Assembly (NCBI GenBank): GCA_000004985.1
Contig: GG738859.1
From: Naegleria gruberi
Taxonomy: Eukaryota
DNA: 64,000 nt
Direction: 5' to 3' (one strand)
Position numbers and translations under genes: made by a program
Shown here: one piece after another, positions 5,523-56,929 of the stretch
Layout: the number at the start of each line of letters is the position of its first letter
Position numbering within the stretch: position 1 is the first letter of the stretch
The notes under the pieces: model-generated
What the model was told of the DNA's origin: nothing
What the model saw: only the letters and a program-made list of their open reading frames with translations
The model's database searches: none

Positions 5523-7268
5523 TTATTTCTTCACCATTGCTTCAAGGAGCGCCTGCATAAGACTGTGCCTGTCCCCTTCCGAGAGAGTTGTCACAAAGCT
5601 CGCCCACCTATTTTCACTTTGTGGTGATGGACTTCCAATAGAGTCGTTATTTTCTTGAATTGTTGCTTGACTGGAATTATCAGCAAATGAACCTCCACAA
5701 CTACTAGTTGGTGTTGCAAGTCCTGCTGGAGATAAGAGGTCAGTTCCATTTTGACTTACACTAGATGGATGAACTGATATTGAATGAGTCCTTGCTGTTT
5801 TCTTCCTTGATCCTGCACCTGTAGGTGTTCCAGAGAATACAAAGTAATTATTCTTAAACTTGTTATTTTCACACAGTACAGTCTCGTTCTTCAATAAGGG
5901 TCTACTAAATTTTTCATTCTTCTTTTCTGATGCATCACCATTTTGAGGTGTTGATGTTCCATTTGAATTGGTATTATTACTATTAGAATTTGGAGAGATG
6001 GATAGAATAGCTGATGGAGATGTATCAGCATATTGGACATGTTGCTGAGGGACTAATATTGAAATTTCTTGAACATTCTTTTTGGATTTCTTTGTTGGTT
6101 TCTTATTTGTTGAGGGTGCTTTGGTAACTTTTTTAGTTCGTTTCTTTTTTCCTCCCTTTTGTGGTTTATCCTCATCTATCATTTCACTTGTGAATGTTTC
6201 ATTCATCACATTCATGAATGCAGATTTTGAAGTTTCTCCAAGCATTTCCTCTACTGAACCTTGTTGAAGTGTTGAGGTTTCCATCATTGAGTTTGAAGTA
6301 AACGAGTGTGAATGAACTTGTTCATCGTTAGATGCGCACAAATCTACTGGTTTTAGTAAATCTTGCATTTGGTGAGAGGAGGTATTTAAGGCATGTTGAG
6401 GTGAATGTGAAATTAGTGCTGAGAAATCATTCGGATTAATGATAATGGACGCTTGATGATGATGAGGAGATGATGAGAATACATCCGACGATGATGATGT
6501 TGGGTGGTTGTTCATGGATCCAAATACAACTTGTTGTTGTGGGTTTACACTTCCATTAAGCATGATGGGTTGATTTTTCGAGACCATTCTTTGGTTATTA
6601 AGACTAGATTGTAGCAATTGAAGAATTGAAGTTTCAGATAAGTTACTATCTATCATGCCAATATTTACATTGGAGGATGGTTGCTGTGGAATTTGATTTT
6701 GTTGAGAGAACATTTGTAACAGTTGAAGGTTAGTTTGATTGAAATTGTTAGGGGAGGTGTCGGAAGGAGAGGGAATACCATTCATCTTCCATGTAGAGTT
6801 TACAGAGTTTGTATCCATATTGATGGTAACTTGTTGGGTGTGTTGAAGATGAGACTGGTTATTGTTGGAACAGTTCATGTTAGGTGGGAGAGGAGCAACA
6901 ATATTCGATTGATGATTAAGCATTTCAACTTGCTGTAGTAATTTTTCAATGGAAATGTTATTCGTGTCGAGACACATGTTAGAATTCAAGGATTGTTGTG
7001 ATTGTGAATGATTGAGAGTATTTTGATTATTATTTGAATTTTGTTGGAGGAGAGAATTAAGCGAATCTTGAGTATTAGGAGTCATGAATAAACCATGTGG
7101 AGAAATGATACCGTTACCTAAAAGCTCTGACAGCGTCGATGAATTGTTGGTAGCAGTGCCAGCTTGCTGGTGTTGTTGGGAGTGTGTTGGTGAGGATAAT
7201 TGTTGAAAGAGTCCTTCACCAATATTGTTATTATTATTATTGTTATTAGTTTGTTGCAATTGTCTCAT
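5523..7268 (-). CDS. N/Q-rich low-complexity protein (581 aa) with lysine-rich NLS-like patch and conserved FSRPLLKNETVLCE...NYFVF motif; paralog of 55022..56929
   Basis: Long uninterrupted ORF with poly-N and Q-rich runs and a KKKRTKKVTKAPSTNKKPTKKSKK patch. The motif KFSRPLLKNETVLCENNKFKNNYFVF is shared 15/15 in its core with the 55022..56929 ORF. Confidence 0.5.
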   Translation of the reverse strand: MRQLQQTNNNNNNNNIGEGLFQQLSSPTHSQQHQQAGTATNNSSTLSELLGNGIISPHGLFMTPNTQDSLNSLLQQNSNNNQNTLNHSQSQQSLNSNMCLDTNNISIEKLLQQVEMLNHQSNIVAPLPPNMNCSNNNQSHLQHTQQVTINMDTNSVNSTWKMNGIPSPSDTSPNNFNQTNLQLLQMFSQQNQIPQQPSSNVNIGMIDSNLSETSILQLLQSSLNNQRMVSKNQPIMLNGSVNPQQQVVFGSMNNHPTSSSSDVFSSSPHHHQASIIINPNDFSALISHSPQHALNTSSHQMQDLLKPVDLCASNDEQVHSHSFTSNSMMETSTLQQGSVEEMLGETSKSAFMNVMNETFTSEMIDEDKPQKGGKKKRTKKVTKAPSTNKKPTKKSKKNVQEISILVPQQHVQYADTSPSAILSISPNSNSNNTNSNGTSTPQNGDASEKKNEKFSRPLLKNETVLCENNKFKNNYFVFSGTPTGAGSRKKTARTHSISVHPSSVSQNGTDLLSPAGLATPTSSCGGSFADNSSQATIQENNDSIGSPSPQSENRWASFVTTLSEGDRHSLMQALLEAMVKK

Positions 7269-8043
7269 TCGTATATATGGTGTTATAATGGTATTGAGAA
7301 ATGACTGGTGGTAGGATGGTTGTTATTAAGTGATGAATTGCTTATATTCTAGGTTTTTAATATTCTTATTCTTTATAATGACTCTTATTGTTGTTGGTAC
7401 GTTCAACTCTTATAAGGGTGCATTCACAAAGGAAGGCTTTCCTCAAATGAATCGTTGTTTAATATTGTTGTTACCTTTTCTTTTGGGCAAAAATGCTCTT
7501 GTTGTTGATCACTGCATCTCCTGTGCATGCTGCGTGAAAGAGGATGATGCTGCTTAAATAATTTTTACAGGACATCTTAAAAAGTATTCAATTTTTCGTT
7601 TACGCGTAAAATCACCGAATAGGTGTTGCTTAAATGGCTTTTGGTTTTTTCTATTGGTGTATTAAGAAATTTTGGTATCGTTCATGGGATGAATAACCGA
7701 CAACGACTGGTCTATTAAGGAGTGAAGCACCAATTTTAATCGAAGAATCTTTATGCTGCTCTTGTTTAGAAATAATGAGTTTGGTTTTCCTAGCCTTCAC
7801 CAAGCATCCCAGTTCAAACAGCCAGTTTTCTTTGTTAGATTCACAACAGAGAGAGCGTGATCTCAATTTGACTCTTCCTCACTGTTCTTTCCACCAACAT
7901 TACAGTACCTGTATTGTCAAGATCTTGCATTTTTCAACTGAAACCCATATTAATCTTGAGAGTTTTTGACAATTCTAATAATCGATAGCTGCTTTTGTCC
8001 TTAGTATCATAAATAACACCTCCCTATTCAACCTTAATAACAA

Positions 8044-8116
8044 GCCGACATAGCTCAGTTGGGAGAGCGTAAGACTGAAGATCTTAAGGTCCCTGGTTCG
8101 ATCCCTGGTGTCGGCA
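8044..8116 (+). tRNA. tRNA-Phe (anticodon GAA)
   Basis: GCCGACATAGCTCAGTTGGGAGAGCGTAAGACTGAAGATCTTAAGGTCCCTGGTTCGATCCCTGGTGTCGGCA. Canonical cloverleaf, A box TAGCTCAGTTGGGAGAGC, B box GGTTCGATCC, anticodon loop CTGAAGA. Near-identical to textbook eukaryotic tRNA-Phe. A T-run (TTTT) lies 4 nt downstream. Confidence 0.9.
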
Positions 8117-28104: not shown

Positions 28105-29357
28105 ATGGGTATTTGCGCAACTAAACAACCAGGATCAGTCCAAGCACTGAATGAAATTGAAAAGGGAAGACAACAACAAGAAAGAGAAATTAAAGTCTTG
28201 CTTTTGGGAGCAGGTGAATCTGGTAAGAGTAAGTAATCATAACGATAATTGATGGTGGTTGACCATATACAACAATAACAATTTTAATAACTACAAACTA
28301 CTAATGATTGTTTGTTGAATGAACATGTTTAATAATGGTAATGATGATCATATGAAAACCTTTTATCTTTGTTTCTTCAACTTTAACTGATTATAAATTT
28401 ATATATTGATGATTTATAATAGGTACCATTTTCAAGCAAATGAAGATTATCCATCAAAATGGTTACTCTGAAGAAGAAAGAGAATCATACAAGGAAATTA
28501 TCTACGGTAACATATTAAAAGCCATGAAGAATCTGGTCCAAGCGACCTTCTCTTTTAACATTCCTATTGAACAGGAAGAAAACAGAGAACGTGCTGGTAA
28601 GATCAATGAACTCGAACAAGAAGCTCTGCTACACGTACATAAATATTGGACAGCTGAAATTGCTGACGATATTCAATGTTTGTGGTCAGATCCTGGTATT
28701 CAAAAAGTTTTTGAGAAACGTAACGAATTCCAATTGGACGATTCTGCTCCATACTATTTCACTCACCTTGATAGAATTAAACAAGCTGACTATAAGCCAA
28801 CTTTAGAAGACGTTGTCAGATCAAGAGTCAAGACAACTGGTATTGTAGAAATGAGCTTTAAATTAGATGATAGATCTGTAACCTTGATCGACGTTGGTGG
28901 CCAAAGAAACGAACGTAAAAAGTGGATTCACTGCTTTGAAGGTGTCACTGCTATTATCTTTGTTACATCACTGAGTGAGTATGATCAAAGATGTTATGAA
29001 GATGATTCCACCAACCGTATGCATGAATCCTTGCTATTGTTCGACGAAATTTGTAACTCTAGATGGTTCATGGATACATCCATTATCTTGTTCTTGAACA
29101 AGATGGATTTGTTCAAGGAAAAGATCAAGAGAACTGATCTCAGTCAATTCTTCCAAGAATATGAAGGTGGTAGAAACTTTGAAACTGCTGCCAGCTTTAT
29201 TCGTTCTAAATTCGAAGAAAAGAACAGAAATCCAAGACACAAGACCATCTATGCTCACTTTACATGTGCCACAGATACACAACAATTACAACAGGTCTTT
29301 GATGCCATCAAGGATATCATTCTTAACAAGACTTTAAGAGAACAAGGTCTTTTCTAA
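28105..29357 (+). CDS. G protein alpha subunit, Galpha-i/GPA1-class (352 aa); 2 exons (~28105-28228, ~28423-29357)
   Basis: MGICATKQ...KVLLLGAGESGK | STIFKQMKIIHQNGYSEEE...RVKTTGIVE...DVGGQRNERKKWIHCFEGVTAIIF...SIILFLNKMDLFKEKI...FTCATDTQQ...REQGLF. All G1-G5 boxes are canonical. The ~194-nt intron (GTAAGT...TATAATAG) falls in the P-loop codons. Confidence 0.9.
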
Positions 29358-29575: not shown

Positions 29576-30661
29576 ATGGGTGCAAAACAAAGCAGGAATA
29601 GTGCAAAGAAAGTAGACGAAAGCTCATCCACAATACAAGAGAAGAAAATACAAGAAAGAACCGTTATGCTTTTCTCAAAATGCGGAGCAAGTACATTCAG
29701 CAGACAACTCACGAATGATAAATTACATGATAAAAATCAAATTGACTATTGTTGTCATGCTCTGTTATCACGAATGGAAAATTTTGATGAATTTTATTCT
29801 ATGGATGAAGAATTTGCAAGATTAAAGAATTTCAATCAATTTAATAGAATTCCAAGACCTAGGGAAATGCTTACAAGAATTTGGAAACATGACGAAATGA
29901 GACGAATCTTAATGGAAAAGTATCACAATGTTTGGAGATTTGAAAATTTATCTTTATTTATGGAACACTTATTGAATGGAAATTTTGATAATCAATTGGA
30001 AAATCCTTTTACATATGCTTCAACAAAAACAACAGGTGTTATAATTAGTGATTTCATTCATAGTGATCCAATTATTGGTCAACCCATTAAATACAATCTA
30101 GCAGAAATTGGAGGATCTAGAAGTGAATGGAAGAAAGCATTTATCTGTTTTGAAAATGTTTATTTTATATTCTTCTTTTGTGGACTTTCGGATTTTCATG
30201 ATAATCCTAACTATGATTTCGAACATGAATTTGTAAAATTCAATTATGTTTTTACCTGCAATAAGTTTCATGAGATTAATCCAAATTGTAGAATAATATT
30301 CTTATTTACAAAACCAGACATCTTACAATCAAAGCTTAAAAGGGGCAGTATTTATGACATTAAGAAGAATTATGAAATAAGGGAAGAATTGAAACAAATA
30401 TCAAATGAAAATGAAAGAAATGTCATCAATTCCATAGTATGTGATTTTTTTGCAGAGCACGAGACGGAGTATCACATTGTAAATTTACTAAATAAGGAGG
30501 AGGTTAATCAGGTGAGAGATTTGATTTTGAGTGGAGTGAAATCAAGGTTTCCATTCATTTCTAAATGTTTGAGAGATGAAGGAAAATGGAGGCAAGTTCT
30601 TTTCAGAATATTGAAAGATTCTAAACTTGGTGATATTTCAATAATTGCCAGAGGTGAATAA
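29576..30661 (+). CDS. G-alpha-like protein with degenerate nucleotide-binding motifs (predicted pseudo-GTPase), 361 aa, single exon
   Basis: MGAKQSR (myristoylation-type MGxxxS). Where the P-loop aligns it reads TVMLFSKCGASTFSRQL instead of LLLLGAGESGKSTIxKQM. Switch I STKTTGV is retained. G3 is EIGGSRSEWKK (catalytic Gln->Ser). NKxD becomes TKPD. Collinear with Galpha through WIHCFEGV->AFICFENV and ILFLNK->FLFTKP. Confidence 0.7.
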   Translation: MGAKQSRNSAKKVDESSSTIQEKKIQERTVMLFSKCGASTFSRQLTNDKLHDKNQIDYCCHALLSRMENFDEFYSMDEEFARLKNFNQFNRIPRPREMLTRIWKHDEMRRILMEKYHNVWRFENLSLFMEHLLNGNFDNQLENPFTYASTKTTGVIISDFIHSDPIIGQPIKYNLAEIGGSRSEWKKAFICFENVYFIFFFCGLSDFHDNPNYDFEHEFVKFNYVFTCNKFHEINPNCRIIFLFTKPDILQSKLKRGSIYDIKKNYEIREELKQISNENERNVINSIVCDFFAEHETEYHIVNLLNKEEVNQVRDLILSGVKSRFPFISKCLRDEGKWRQVLFRILKDSKLGDISIIARGE

Positions 30662-30719: not shown

Positions 30720-30792
30720 GCCGACATAGCTCAGTTGGGAGAGCGTAAGACTGAAGATCTTAAGGTCCCTGGTTCGATCCCTGGTGTCGGCA
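30720..30792 (+). tRNA. tRNA-Phe (anticodon GAA), second copy
   Basis: 73-nt sequence identical to the copy at 8044..8116. Followed by AAATTTTAG (T-run). Confidence 0.9.
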
Positions 30793-50797: not shown

Positions 50798-51904
50798 ATG
50801 CAAACAACTCAACTCACTTTCGATCAAATTAAATCCTCAATTCTCGTCTCTTTAGATAAGAAGAAATCTGATCAACATTGTAAACTTCTTTTCGAACAAC
50901 TTGTTGGAAAGTTTAAATTCAGAAATAACAAATATACCTTCTCGGGATCATATGATCTTGCACAGTGGCTGGTTCTCTCTTTTGATTCAATGATTAAGGA
51001 AGATGAAAAGTTTTTCACAGAGATTGTCATTCCTATTGTTGCCTATATTTCAATTGTGGATGATGCTTGTGATGAGAACATGACTCTTTCGTCTATTGCA
51101 GAGATGAAAGAGCACTGTAAGATATTTAGAGGAGAACCAGTTTATGCTTCTCACCAAGCTCTCAAGATGGGACAATTTGTGTATAATCTTATCAAGGGAG
51201 AAAGATTCGAATGTATAAGAAGAAAGGTTTTGGAATTCCTGGTGACTGGAACTAATCTAATTGTAAAGGCAAAGCAAGAATGTGAAAATGTCACTAAAGA
51301 AACATTGGAAAACTTTTTAGAGGATAGAAGAATTGACTCCATGGCATCACTTTTCTTTACAATTAATAATTTCTTTAAGAATATTCAAGAATTTGACAGA
51401 TGCGATACTGTATCCACTTTATATAATCACAAGGCAAGTGACACCATCAGTTTATTAAATGATGTTGCCTCCATTGCAAAAGATACCAAAAAGCAACTTG
51501 TTAACAATTATGTAATATTGAATAAGGGATTGAAAGAGAACTTGACATACACTCAATTGAAACAACTCCCAATTGAAGCATTTGAATCATCCCTGAATGA
51601 AGTTTTAGAATTAATCAAAGACAATTTACTCCAAATGCAAACAATCAAATCCTCCAACCCATCCTACTCCACTCAATTCGATTCAATCGATGAAGTCATG
51701 AAGGGATATTGTACATGGTGTATCATTTCCAAAAGATTCCAACTTGAAAATCATCTCCTTCCTGAATATCATCCAAAGATGACATCAGGTGAGTTGAAGC
51801 CAGCACAAAAACCATGGGCTGATGATGATATGGATACTTATTTTGTTGATATTGAAAAATTCAATGAAGAACTTCTCCTCACTTTCAGAATATTGATGCT
51901 GTAA
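50798..51904 (+). CDS. class I (microbial-type) terpene synthase-like protein, 368 aa
   Basis: Single ORF of typical sesquiterpene-cyclase size. Asp-rich motif VAYISIVDDACDEN (DDxxD) at ~aa 85. NSE/DTE-like motif LLNDVASIAKD (NDxxSxxxD) follows ~135 aa downstream. The rest is predicted all-alpha. Confidence 0.5.
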   Translation: MQTTQLTFDQIKSSILVSLDKKKSDQHCKLLFEQLVGKFKFRNNKYTFSGSYDLAQWLVLSFDSMIKEDEKFFTEIVIPIVAYISIVDDACDENMTLSSIAEMKEHCKIFRGEPVYASHQALKMGQFVYNLIKGERFECIRRKVLEFLVTGTNLIVKAKQECENVTKETLENFLEDRRIDSMASLFFTINNFFKNIQEFDRCDTVSTLYNHKASDTISLLNDVASIAKDTKKQLVNNYVILNKGLKENLTYTQLKQLPIEAFESSLNEVLELIKDNLLQMQTIKSSNPSYSTQFDSIDEVMKGYCTWCIISKRFQLENHLLPEYHPKMTSGELKPAQKPWADDDMDTYFVDIEKFNEELLLTFRILML

Positions 51905-52423: not shown

Positions 52424-52504
52424 CGCAAACTGCAGGATTTGAACCTGCGAGGGTTTCCCCACGAGATTTCGAGTCTCGCGCCTTAACCTCTCGGCCAAGT
52501 TTGC
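52424..52504 (-). tRNA. tRNA-Ser (anticodon CGA), type II with long variable arm
   Basis: Reverse complement GCAAACTTGGCCGAGAGGTTAAGGCGCGAGACTCGAAATCTCGTGGGGAAACCCTCGCAGGTTCAAATCCTGCAGTTTGCG: 7-bp acceptor stem, anticodon loop CTCGAAA, long extra arm, B box GGTTCAAATCC. A T-run follows on the coding strand. Confidence 0.85.
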
Positions 52505-53853: not shown

Positions 53854-54642
53854 TTACAACTGGGTGAGAGGAGTGGTTGGATTATCATAATAATTCTTGT
53901 CAGTAATACGTTCAGACAAGAAGGAATATGGTGCATGGGACCACTGATCAGTATGAGAATAGAAGAAATCGTGAATATCTTCTCCTGGAGCTCTATTGTT
54001 CAATATTTGCTTATCGATAGAGTAGACCTCCTCTTCGAAAATGTAACATTTCGAGTCGGTGAACATGTAGGCATAAACAACATCATTATTACCAATAGGA
54101 CTGTATAGTGCTTGAATAGGCTCATCCATAGTAAATTTACCAACATGAATACCAAAGAACCAACATTCATTGGAAGGAATAAATCTAATCAATAGGGCAG
54201 CACCATGGAAGAGTATTGGATACGCATTGCTTGGAAAGACCTCTGCAGTATTATCAATACCAGGGAAAACTTCAAAAGGAGTTTCATTGGCATCTAATTC
54301 CTTGATGAGAGCAAAGAAGTAGGCCTCTCTTTGGTTGAATTCCTTCAAGTACAAACCCTTTCGAGTGATCTTGTCTCCATTGGAGAGGATGATTTCTTGT
54401 TCGACCATATTTACACTTGTTTGATCACGAGATTGCTTGGTGAAGGAAGCTTCGTAAATGTAGATGTGTTGTTTATCATTTCTGACTTGAATAACAAAGG
54501 CACGACCTCCATTGTCATGTGTTACATAGAGTTGATAATCAGCAAAGGTTTGATTGGAAAGTTCAACTTCTTGGAAGGAGGTGATTTGTGGACCCGATTG
54601 AACAGCCTGGTTGTTCATTGGTGTACTGACGAGAGTTGGCAT
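53854..54642 (-). CDS. hypothetical protein, 262 aa
   Basis: Uninterrupted ATG-initiated ORF with ordinary (not low-complexity) composition. No family recognised. The ORF continues in frame to the stop at 53854; upstream exons not assessed. Confidence 0.35.
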   Translation of the reverse strand: MPTLVSTPMNNQAVQSGPQITSFQEVELSNQTFADYQLYVTHDNGGRAFVIQVRNDKQHIYIYEASFTKQSRDQTSVNMVEQEIILSNGDKITRKGLYLKEFNQREAYFFALIKELDANETPFEVFPGIDNTAEVFPSNAYPILFHGAALLIRFIPSNECWFFGIHVGKFTMDEPIQALYSPIGNNDVVYAYMFTDSKCYIFEEEVYSIDKQILNNRAPGEDIHDFFYSHTDQWSHAPYSFLSERITDKNYYDNPTTPLTQL

Positions 54643-55021: not shown

Positions 55022-56929
55022 TTAATTGTTATTATTATTCTTATTCATCATGGCAATATATTGTTCTAATAAATCAGACCATTGCTCCTGACTCAATTCT
55101 TGCAATGGAACAGAAGTTGATGCTGATGCCATAGTTGCTGTTGTTGCTACAGCAGAACTATTATCAAATACAAAATTGCTCAAATCCTCCTCAACAATGA
55201 AATCCTCCAATGGAAGAAATGATGATGAAGGTAAAACTTCGGCATTCATAAAGCTAGCATTGTTATTTGCTGCTGCTTCGTTATTAGTAGTAATAGATTG
55301 TTGTTGTTGTAGATGTTGTGGAAATAGACTTTCAACAACAGGTGATAAACTGGCAAGTAAATTATCAACTGGATTAATATTGGTATCTTGATGGGAACAA
55401 TTCATCATTGAATTATTAGTGTTAGAGAATGAGCTGATGGGAGTATATTCATTGTTGTTTAAACAGGATAATTCAAGATACTTATTTCCAACAAATTGTT
55501 GATTATTATTAACATTGGAAAGGAGAATATTCAAAACATTGGAATTATTCTCAATTGGAGGAGATGATCGTGTTGTTGATGCTGTTTGTGTGGTTACTGA
55601 AGGAATAATTGCCTGTTGAGTAAGTAATTGATGAGTAATGGTCATTGGTTGTTGATCCAATTGACCATTTGAATTATTAGAGGAATTAGAAGTATTTGGA
55701 GAATGAGTCATTCTAATATTTGATTGAATAAATTGTTGTGGTACATGTTGAGTTAATTGCATTTGTGGAATAGTTAACATTGGAGAAGATTGATTGGAAG
55801 CAGATGAAGAATCCAAAGATTGCATTGATTGACTTGGAATATGTTGTTGAAAAACTTGAATTGGTTGTTGTGCAAAAACACCAAATTGTTGTTTCATTTG
55901 CTTATTTCCCATTCCATTATTCGAAACCTTCTTATTCTTCTTTTGATTATTCAATTTAGGTGAATTTCCACTTCCACTCTGAATCTCTCCACTAATAATC
56001 TCATTCACTGAAATATTATGAAATGAAATTTGTGCCTTTTCCTTCTTCTTTTCAAATACGAAATAATTTTGCTTGAATTTTGGTTTTTCACACAAAACTG
56101 TTTCATTCTTCAATAGTGGACGACTGAATTTTCCTTCACTCTTAATGACAACATTCCCAGTAGAGAGAGAAGAATTGAATTGTTGTTGTGGAGTCAATGG
56201 AGTTGAAGAGGAGGATGAAGAAGCTAGTTCTGAACTTGTTGTTGGTGAAGAATGAAGACATGTTGATGAAACATGTTGAGTCAATTTGGCCATTTTGTGT
56301 GATTTTTGAATGCCTCTAGCATGTAGTGGTGGAGTGGATGATAACTTTTGAAGTGGTGGGCTAGGTGTTAATGAATCATTCAAATTAGTTTGATTGTTTG
56401 TTGTAACATGTTGTTGATGAAAATTGAAAATTTGATTGTCAGCACTTGACATGTTAAATTGGTGTTGATTATCAAAATGTGAAGGAGAAGAATTGTTTCC
56501 ACTCATGTTATGACTCTTTGAAGGTGTTATACATGTATTTACAAGATTAATCATTGGATTTGGATGATTCAATGAAGTGTTATGACTATTGTTGTTAATC
56601 ACAACTAGAATTGGAGAAACTGAAGTTGAGTTTTGTTGAGTATGAGGTGGTGGTGATAATTTGCTAGTTGCAGCCAACAGTATTTGATCTAGTGTTGTTG
56701 TTGATGTGGATTCATTTTGTTGACATGTGTTGGCAGATGATTGAGAGGTGGCACTTTGCATTAATAATTGGTACATGTCCCAAACACTCTTATCTACAGT
56801 GACTGGTTGGGATGTATTTGTTGTTGTTGGAGAATTTTGAAGTGAATGATTTTCAGATGTCGAATAGAAACCATTATTCGAAAGGTTGTTGTTCGAGAGA
56901 TTATTCTTACTCATCATTAAATTGAGCAT
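55022..56929 (-). CDS. N/S/Q-rich low-complexity protein (635 aa) with conserved FSRPLLKNETVLCE...NYFVF motif; paralog of 5523..7268
   Basis: Uninterrupted ORF. KFSRPLLKNETVLCEKPKFKQNYFVFEKKKEK at ~aa 270, followed by a basic patch (NNQKKNKKVSNNGMGNKQMKQQ). The C-terminal LQELSQEQWSDLLEQYIAMM resembles the C-terminal end of the paralog. Confidence 0.5.
   Translation of the reverse strand: MLNLMMSKNNLSNNNLSNNGFYSTSENHSLQNSPTTTNTSQPVTVDKSVWDMYQLLMQSATSQSSANTCQQNESTSTTTLDQILLAATSKLSPPPHTQQNSTSVSPILVVINNNSHNTSLNHPNPMINLVNTCITPSKSHNMSGNNSSPSHFDNQHQFNMSSADNQIFNFHQQHVTTNNQTNLNDSLTPSPPLQKLSSTPPLHARGIQKSHKMAKLTQHVSSTCLHSSPTTSSELASSSSSSTPLTPQQQFNSSLSTGNVVIKSEGKFSRPLLKNETVLCEKPKFKQNYFVFEKKKEKAQISFHNISVNEIISGEIQSGSGNSPKLNNQKKNKKVSNNGMGNKQMKQQFGVFAQQPIQVFQQHIPSQSMQSLDSSSASNQSSPMLTIPQMQLTQHVPQQFIQSNIRMTHSPNTSNSSNNSNGQLDQQPMTITHQLLTQQAIIPSVTTQTASTTRSSPPIENNSNVLNILLSNVNNNQQFVGNKYLELSCLNNNEYTPISSFSNTNNSMMNCSHQDTNINPVDNLLASLSPVVESLFPQHLQQQQSITTNNEAAANNNASFMNAEVLPSSSFLPLEDFIVEEDLSNFVFDNSSAVATTATMASASTSVPLQELSQEQWSDLLEQYIAMMNKNNNNN

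Follow-up and report, generated by a model that had tools for sequence, protein, structure and literature searches.

Two genes of Naegleria gruberi, here called gene A and gene B, are anciently diverged paralogs that have kept in common a single short island of sequence, and this island defines a family that is confined, as far as detectable, to heterolobosean amoebae of the Naegleria-Willaertia branch. The family appears to be undescribed: no Pfam model covers it, database names for the members go no further than "predicted protein" or "hypothetical protein", and the identifiers of genes A and B retrieved nothing from the literature; a preprint on the Naegleria kinetochore does not mention the two genes either. 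Our preferred interpretation, to which we would give about an even chance, is that the family members are lineage-restricted, disordered and probably nuclear regulators, and that the island is a docking peptide that would fold upon binding.

Both genes lie on the minus strand of a 64-kb window (the whole stretch of N. gruberi nuclear DNA analyzed here), as the preliminary description had them: gene A is an ORF of 581 aa at 5523..7268 and gene B an ORF of 635 aa at 55022..56929. They correspond to exact or near-exact N. gruberi database entries from a 530-kb scaffold (NAEGRDRAFT_47937 / XP_002679155 / D2VAD5 and NAEGRDRAFT_47954 / XP_002679164 / D2VAF6, respectively), the sole annotation of which is "predicted protein". 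The gene B ORF is identical to its entry; the database model of gene A is 611 aa long and includes an intron and an upstream exon at about 7474..7527, which adds 30 aa at the N-terminus. The two proteins had been called N/Q-rich, which holds in that asparagine (13.1% in A, 13.5% in B) and glutamine (9.6% and 9.8%) are both high, although the commonest residue is serine (15.5% and 16.1%); together, S, N, Q, and T account for about 46% of each protein. The proteins of the family are long chains rich in these four residues and presumably intrinsically disordered. Dipeptides of the [ST]P type occur at about twice the frequency expected from composition in genes A and B and in the N. lovaniensis member P0124 (shuffling, p<=0.002), an excess not seen in the shorter family members.

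The window has a G+C content of 32-38% and contains eukaryotic genes for G-alpha, RGS, catalase, C2, MATH, dynactin p22, P450, and terpene-synthase-like proteins. Two G-alpha ORFs stand in tandem on the plus strand: the one at 28440..29357 shows strong conservation (88% identity to a Willaertia magna protein, Pfam E 1.9e-120), and the one at 29576..30661 is far more diverged (Pfam E 5.8e-17). The terpene-synthase-like ORF (Terpene_syn_C_2, 50798..51904, plus strand) and the cytochrome P450 gene (61306..62757, plus strand) are about 10 kb apart. The window also carries two tRNA-Phe(GAA) genes of identical sequence on the plus strand (8044..8116 and 30720..30792, with about 22.7 kb between them) and a tRNA-Ser(CGA) gene at 52424..52504 on the minus strand.

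The proteins encoded by genes A and B can be aligned only over residues 444-499 of A and 258-308 of B, where 30 of 56 positions are identical (BLASTP with composition correction, E 2e-13). The core of this island is the identical 15-mer KFSRPLLKNETVLCE, followed by two variable residues and then by KFKxNYFVF, as had been noticed in the preliminary description; the complete core motif reads KFSRPLLKNETVLCENNKFKNNYFVF in gene A (5835..5912, minus strand, aa 453-478) and KFSRPLLKNETVLCEKPKFKQNYFVF in gene B (56054..56131, minus strand, aa 267-292). A third copy of the island was not found in the window by tblastn. Of the 26 core residues, 23 are the same in both proteins, and 14 of these 23 are encoded by synonymously different codons. 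At the DNA level, the sole significant similarity that blastn detected between the two genes is a stretch of 78 nt with 74% identity, and the flanks show none. This is far from the identity of more than 90% over the whole genes that would have pointed to a recent duplication or an assembly artefact.

The compositional bias in both genes makes it necessary to consider that the island could be functionless, whether as a chance match between low-complexity sequences, as the product of a recent duplication or an assembly artefact, or as an element acting at the DNA or RNA level. These readings are refuted, and we leave them practically no probability. The protein similarity is highly significant despite the correction for composition, the confinement of the DNA similarity to 78 nt at 74% identity rules out a recent duplicate or an artefact, and near-identity of the peptide in the face of so many synonymous differences rules out both a nucleotide-level element and a chance match. 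Moreover, the island is kept in five more genes, from other species, and 13 of its 14 invariant residues are encoded by several codons.

The distribution of the island was determined with HMMER: a profile built from both islands was compared, with no word index, to 1.84 billion representative proteins. Seven clusters were found, consisting of A, B, one N. lovaniensis protein (C9374_005947, P0124), two W. magna proteins (ABK040_010164 and ABK040_014063, hereafter P0126 and P0127, with lengths of 226 and 250 aa), and two environmental members (P0123, with P0128 in the same cluster, and P0125). Seven is a lower bound, since a profile made from two sequences of a 26-residue motif is blind to diverged versions. 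A word-indexed protein search missed even A and B themselves, which reflects a failure of recall for a short motif and not absence. With the two-sequence HMMER profile, no match was obtained in Acrasis kona or in the other heteroloboseans of the collection. A scan of viral contigs with the motif gave nothing, and two scans of metagenome contigs gave nothing genuine; one metagenome locus (L007) was rejected because it lies on a bacterial or phage contig and matches by chance only at LCEKPKFK.

Across the seven genes the island is 25-26 residues long and has 14 invariant residues, in the pattern F-x-R-P-L-L-x-N-E-x-x-L-C-x(4-5)-F-x-x-N-Y-F-V, with [FW] next. Nine of the 14 are F, L, Y, V, or C, and only one is basic. 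At 13 of the 14, the seven genes use 2-4 synonymous codons, a sign that the peptide is under strong selection. Beyond the island, even proteins from different Naegleria species do not align, and lengths across the family vary from 226 to 635 aa. The preliminary description had proposed a short conserved island amid otherwise fast-evolving sequence and had suggested looking for it in related species; both expectations were borne out, as synonymous sites are saturated within the island and the remainder is unalignable, and the island is present in both paralog lineages, in Naegleria, in Willaertia, and in two environmental relatives.

Orthology was assigned from gene contexts and from tblastx against the window. 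P0124 and the environmental P0128 both lie immediately downstream of an EMP24 gene, and an RGS gene is also close to P0124 in N. lovaniensis; in the N. gruberi window, EMP24 is found at 52.7-53.6 kb and RGS at 47.1-50.3 kb. These common neighbors identify P0124 and P0128 as orthologs of gene B. Compared with N. lovaniensis (L004), the segment with gene B (52.7-57 kb of the window) is inverted relative to the RGS/EMP24 neighbors. Between EMP24 and gene B there is a 262-aa ORF (53854..54642, minus strand) that is without a Pfam match and for which the syntenic stretch of N. lovaniensis has no counterpart. P0125 adjoins the ortholog of the PNP_UDP_1 gene (from 14409 in the window), and it aligns with gene A (E 3e-16) starting at the motif and continuing up to the C-terminus, which identifies it as the ortholog of gene A. 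The gene for RPA1 (Rep_fac-A) directly adjoins P0126 in W. magna (L002, 6320..10681) and likewise P0128 (L003, 9738..12676, a contig of JGI 3300002220), an adjacency absent in N. gruberi and N. lovaniensis. The position of both P0128 and P0126 beside RPA1 suggests that P0126 is the Willaertia ortholog of gene B. As both paralog lineages have orthologs in relatives, the A/B duplication took place before the sampled Naegleria-like species diverged, and possibly before the Naegleria-Willaertia split.

Around the island, conservation is looser or limited to subfamilies. In gene A, the basic patch SRKKTAR (5790..5810, minus strand) lies just past the motif, and a basic run occurs in the roughly 20 aa that follow the motif in 5 of the 6 other family proteins, being weak in P0127; it varies in sequence, length, and distance, and the 46 residues counted from the motif start contain 7-11 K+R. 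The lysine-rich patches that had been described as flanking the core are present in both paralogs, but their positions differ. Gene A has its candidate nuclear localization signal upstream of the motif (KPQKGGKKKRTKKVTKAPSTNKKPTKKSKKN, 6075..6167, minus strand, aa 368-398), recognized from its sequence pattern only and preceded by an acidic/hydrophobic stretch (6168..6260, minus strand), whereas the patches of gene B are downstream (aa 293-298 and 327-335). Patches of the K[KR]x[KR] type occur at varying positions in four of the seven family members and are absent from three. The gene B subfamily has an extension directly after the motif (EKKKEKAQISFHNISVNEIISGE, 55985..56053, minus strand, aa 293-315) that is kept in P0124 and P0123/P0128 with the pattern EKKKEK..ISFHNISVNEIISGE and is absent from the gene A ortholog. 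This subfamily has in addition an upstream motif of the pattern G[IV]xK[ST][HY]KM, which reads GIQKSHKM in gene B (56291..56314, minus strand, aa 206-213), GVHKTYKM in P0124, and GVKKSHKM in P0123. The two Willaertia proteins share an extra motif of their own, LKLS.[KQ]DIEEL.[YN]YP (P0126 aa 145-161 and P0127 aa 228-244, E 2e-4), which was not seen in the Naegleria proteins.

The island had been described as unrecognised, and our searches agree. No match to Pfam-A was obtained, at E up to 1 and 5, for A, B, and 4 of the 5 relatives, and P0125 gave only two insignificant DUF matches (E 0.058 and 0.21). The motif profile retrieved nothing at E<=10 from all PDB chain sequences, and a Cip/Kip profile showed no similarity (see below). 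The island had also been called ordered, a property that AlphaFold2 did not reproduce: constructs of both A and B, modeled from alignments of 7 sequences, gave pLDDT values of 50-64 over the island and no tertiary fold, the models containing one or two helical turns around TVLC only. With alignments so shallow, the absent fold is suggestive and leaves room for a small autonomous domain. The lack of a predicted autonomous fold, again from shallow alignments, and the unalignable flanks are what is expected of a linear motif or MoRF. Several known motifs were considered and dropped because the island does not fit their patterns, namely the PIP-box, D-box, ABBA, LxCxE, eh1, PxVxL, and clathrin box motifs, the YxxxxL-hydrophobic motif of 4E-BP, and the Chk1-binding repeat of Claspin.

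A second element was predicted at the C-terminus of gene A. There, AlphaFold2 (residues 420-581) models a two-helix hairpin, PQSENRWASFVTTLSEGDRHSLMQALLEAMVKK (5526..5624, minus strand, aa 549-581), with helices at aa 549-561 and 564-580 and a pLDDT of about 95. The hairpin is kept in the gene A ortholog P0125 and at the extreme C-terminus of W. magna P0126, where 0 of 2000 shuffled sequences score equally high. A similar C-terminal helix had been noted in genes A and B, and it is real in A, P0125, and P0126, but the resemblance between A and B is not significant. The best match of gene B to the A-type C-terminal profile is an amphipathic segment (QELSQEQWSDLLEQYIAMMNKN, 55037..55102, minus strand, aa 610-631) that is equalled by 52 of 500 shuffles, and a two-sequence C-terminal profile did not match gene B; this segment could correspond, in degenerate form, to the hairpin of gene A. 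A Foldseek search of the gene A C-terminal model against the PDB returned only the helix-hairpin of RecR (E 4.4), and a profile search with the C-terminal alignment against PDB chains gave only unrelated matches at chance level (best E 0.068). The hairpin is likely to be a dimerization element or a second docking element.

Taken together, these features are best accommodated if the 25-26-residue peptide is a long linear motif of the MoRF type, which would fold on binding a conserved, structured partner protein. Binding to a partner is suggested by the dominance of F, L, Y, V, and C in the invariant set, with its single basic residue and no predicted autonomous fold, and by the extreme divergence around an island that was retained in two old paralog lineages. 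Once the peptide is docked, the disordered arms and the acidic/hydrophobic patches might serve a regulatory or scaffolding role, and the C-terminal hairpin of the A-type and Willaertia proteins would probably provide dimerization or a second contact. Together with N/Q-rich arms and acidic/hydrophobic segments, the lysine-rich patches resembling nuclear localization signals point to regulators active in the nucleus, the putative location being drawn from the lysine-rich patches and the regulatory role from composition; the proteins could act in the nucleus, for example as transcription or chromatin co-regulators. What speaks against a docking peptide is that the island is longer (25-26 residues) and more constrained (14 invariant residues) than typical linear motifs.

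The preliminary description had left open whether the island binds DNA, RNA, or protein. That it is functional is now supported, and its mostly hydrophobic and aromatic invariant residues favor protein over nucleic acid. The island and its basic patch could nevertheless form an autonomous nucleic-acid-binding mini-domain, such as a beta-ribbon with a basic tail, which would make the proteins sequence-specific transcription factors whose DNA-binding domain would be new. N/Q-rich and acidic/hydrophobic regions are typical of transcription factors, NLS-like patches are present, most members have a basic run after the motif within a lysine- and arginine-rich segment, and Pfam revealed no other candidate DNA-binding domain. 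We nevertheless regard this as unlikely, given the one invariant basic residue among a hydrophobic and aromatic majority, the inconstancy of the basic patch in sequence, length, and distance, and the absence of a predicted fold in either paralog. Proteins of P-bodies and stress granules are typically Q/N/S-rich and disordered, with short motifs that bind helicases or decapping factors, and the composition of the Naegleria proteins would also suit cytoplasmic scaffolds of RNP granules or condensates in which the island docks a conserved enzyme (a helicase or a decay factor). The lysine-rich NLS-like patches of several members and the lack of any RNA-binding domain in the Pfam searches make such a cytoplasmic role quite unlikely.

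A narrower form of the docking reading, that the island is a hitherto undescribed, Heterolobosea-specific protein-protein docking module tethering disordered proteins to the core cell-cycle or transcription machinery, seems very unlikely to us in that specific form; the proteins might then, for example, functionally replace in this lineage the CDK inhibitors or G1/S cofactors, for which no described counterpart in Naegleria is known to us. We judge it highly improbable that the island serves to dock or inhibit cyclin/CDK and that the proteins are heterolobosean functional analogs of fast-evolving cell-cycle regulators like the Cip/Kip or Sic1-type CDK inhibitors. In favor of it, KFSRPLLKNE fits, at the level of pattern, the R-x-L-hydrophobic consensus of cyclin docking, and p27 has a strand, K-W-N-F-D-F, to which K-x-N-Y-F-V-F bears a vague likeness; the two proteins of W. 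magna are small, and CDK inhibitors, too, are short conserved modules in disordered proteins. Functional analogy among CDK inhibitors also does not require sequence identity, as Sic1 and p27 illustrate (PMC4862756). Against it, the spacing from the RxL-like element to the aromatic strand is about half of that in p27, and sites with the complete CDK consensus, [ST]Px[KR], are almost lacking (0-1 per protein), with the [ST]P excess limited to three long Naegleria proteins and thus lending no support. The profile comparisons that bear on this assignment are given below.

The phenomenon itself is familiar, namely a lineage-restricted disordered family united by one conserved peptide, and there is no sign of an unusual mechanism. 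With the peptide of 26 residues and its 14 invariant positions as a testable handle, an orphan gene family of Naegleria, the genus that includes the pathogen N. fowleri, would acquire a name. In disordered proteins, conserved islands are usually the site at which a conserved hub protein is contacted, which makes the peptide a ready bait for a lineage-specific regulatory interaction. The finding touches no long-standing open question; its main use is as this defined bait in Naegleria.

Three known systems invite comparison. The RxL-like start and the aromatic-strand end of the island led us to compare it with the Cip/Kip-KRP inhibitors (Pfam CDI, PF02234), which likewise combine a short conserved module with disordered, fast-evolving sequence, show an RxL-like start followed by an aromatic strand, and form small paralogous families. 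The island differs from them in being half as long, in having neither the linker helix nor the W/Y-E-W elements, and in showing no profile similarity. Membership in the CDI family (RxLFG...WNFDF...YEW) was accordingly rejected: Pfam includes a Cip/Kip CDI model and none of the seven proteins matched it, when hhalign compared the motif profile with an alignment of p21, p27, and p57, the probability was 0.05%, and no PDB match appeared at E<=10.

At the C-terminus, LMQALLEAM of gene A and LIQMLIESM of P0125 appear to resemble IQMLLEAA, the core of the Sin3-interaction domain (SID) of Mad1. By analogy, a short amphipathic helix at the protein terminus could recruit a corepressor. The gene A helix, confidently predicted by AlphaFold2, differs in being part of a two-helix hairpin and in ending before the positions of Mad1 Y18 and L19, and the PDB profile search gave no SID match and only matches at chance level.

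Vestigial/Tondu (Vg_Tdu, PF07545) and the GTB motif of Whi5/Nrm1 (Whi5, PF08528) belong to disordered transcriptional cofactors in which the sole conserved part, a peptide of about 25 residues, docks a DNA-binding partner, TEAD or SBF/MBF, respectively, and their paralog pairs retain that peptide only. Pfam includes models for both, and the seven proteins matched neither (E up to 1 and 5), so that membership in these families was rejected. Although they are animal and fungal families and have no sequence relationship to the Naegleria proteins, their architecture is the same as that proposed here for the Naegleria family.
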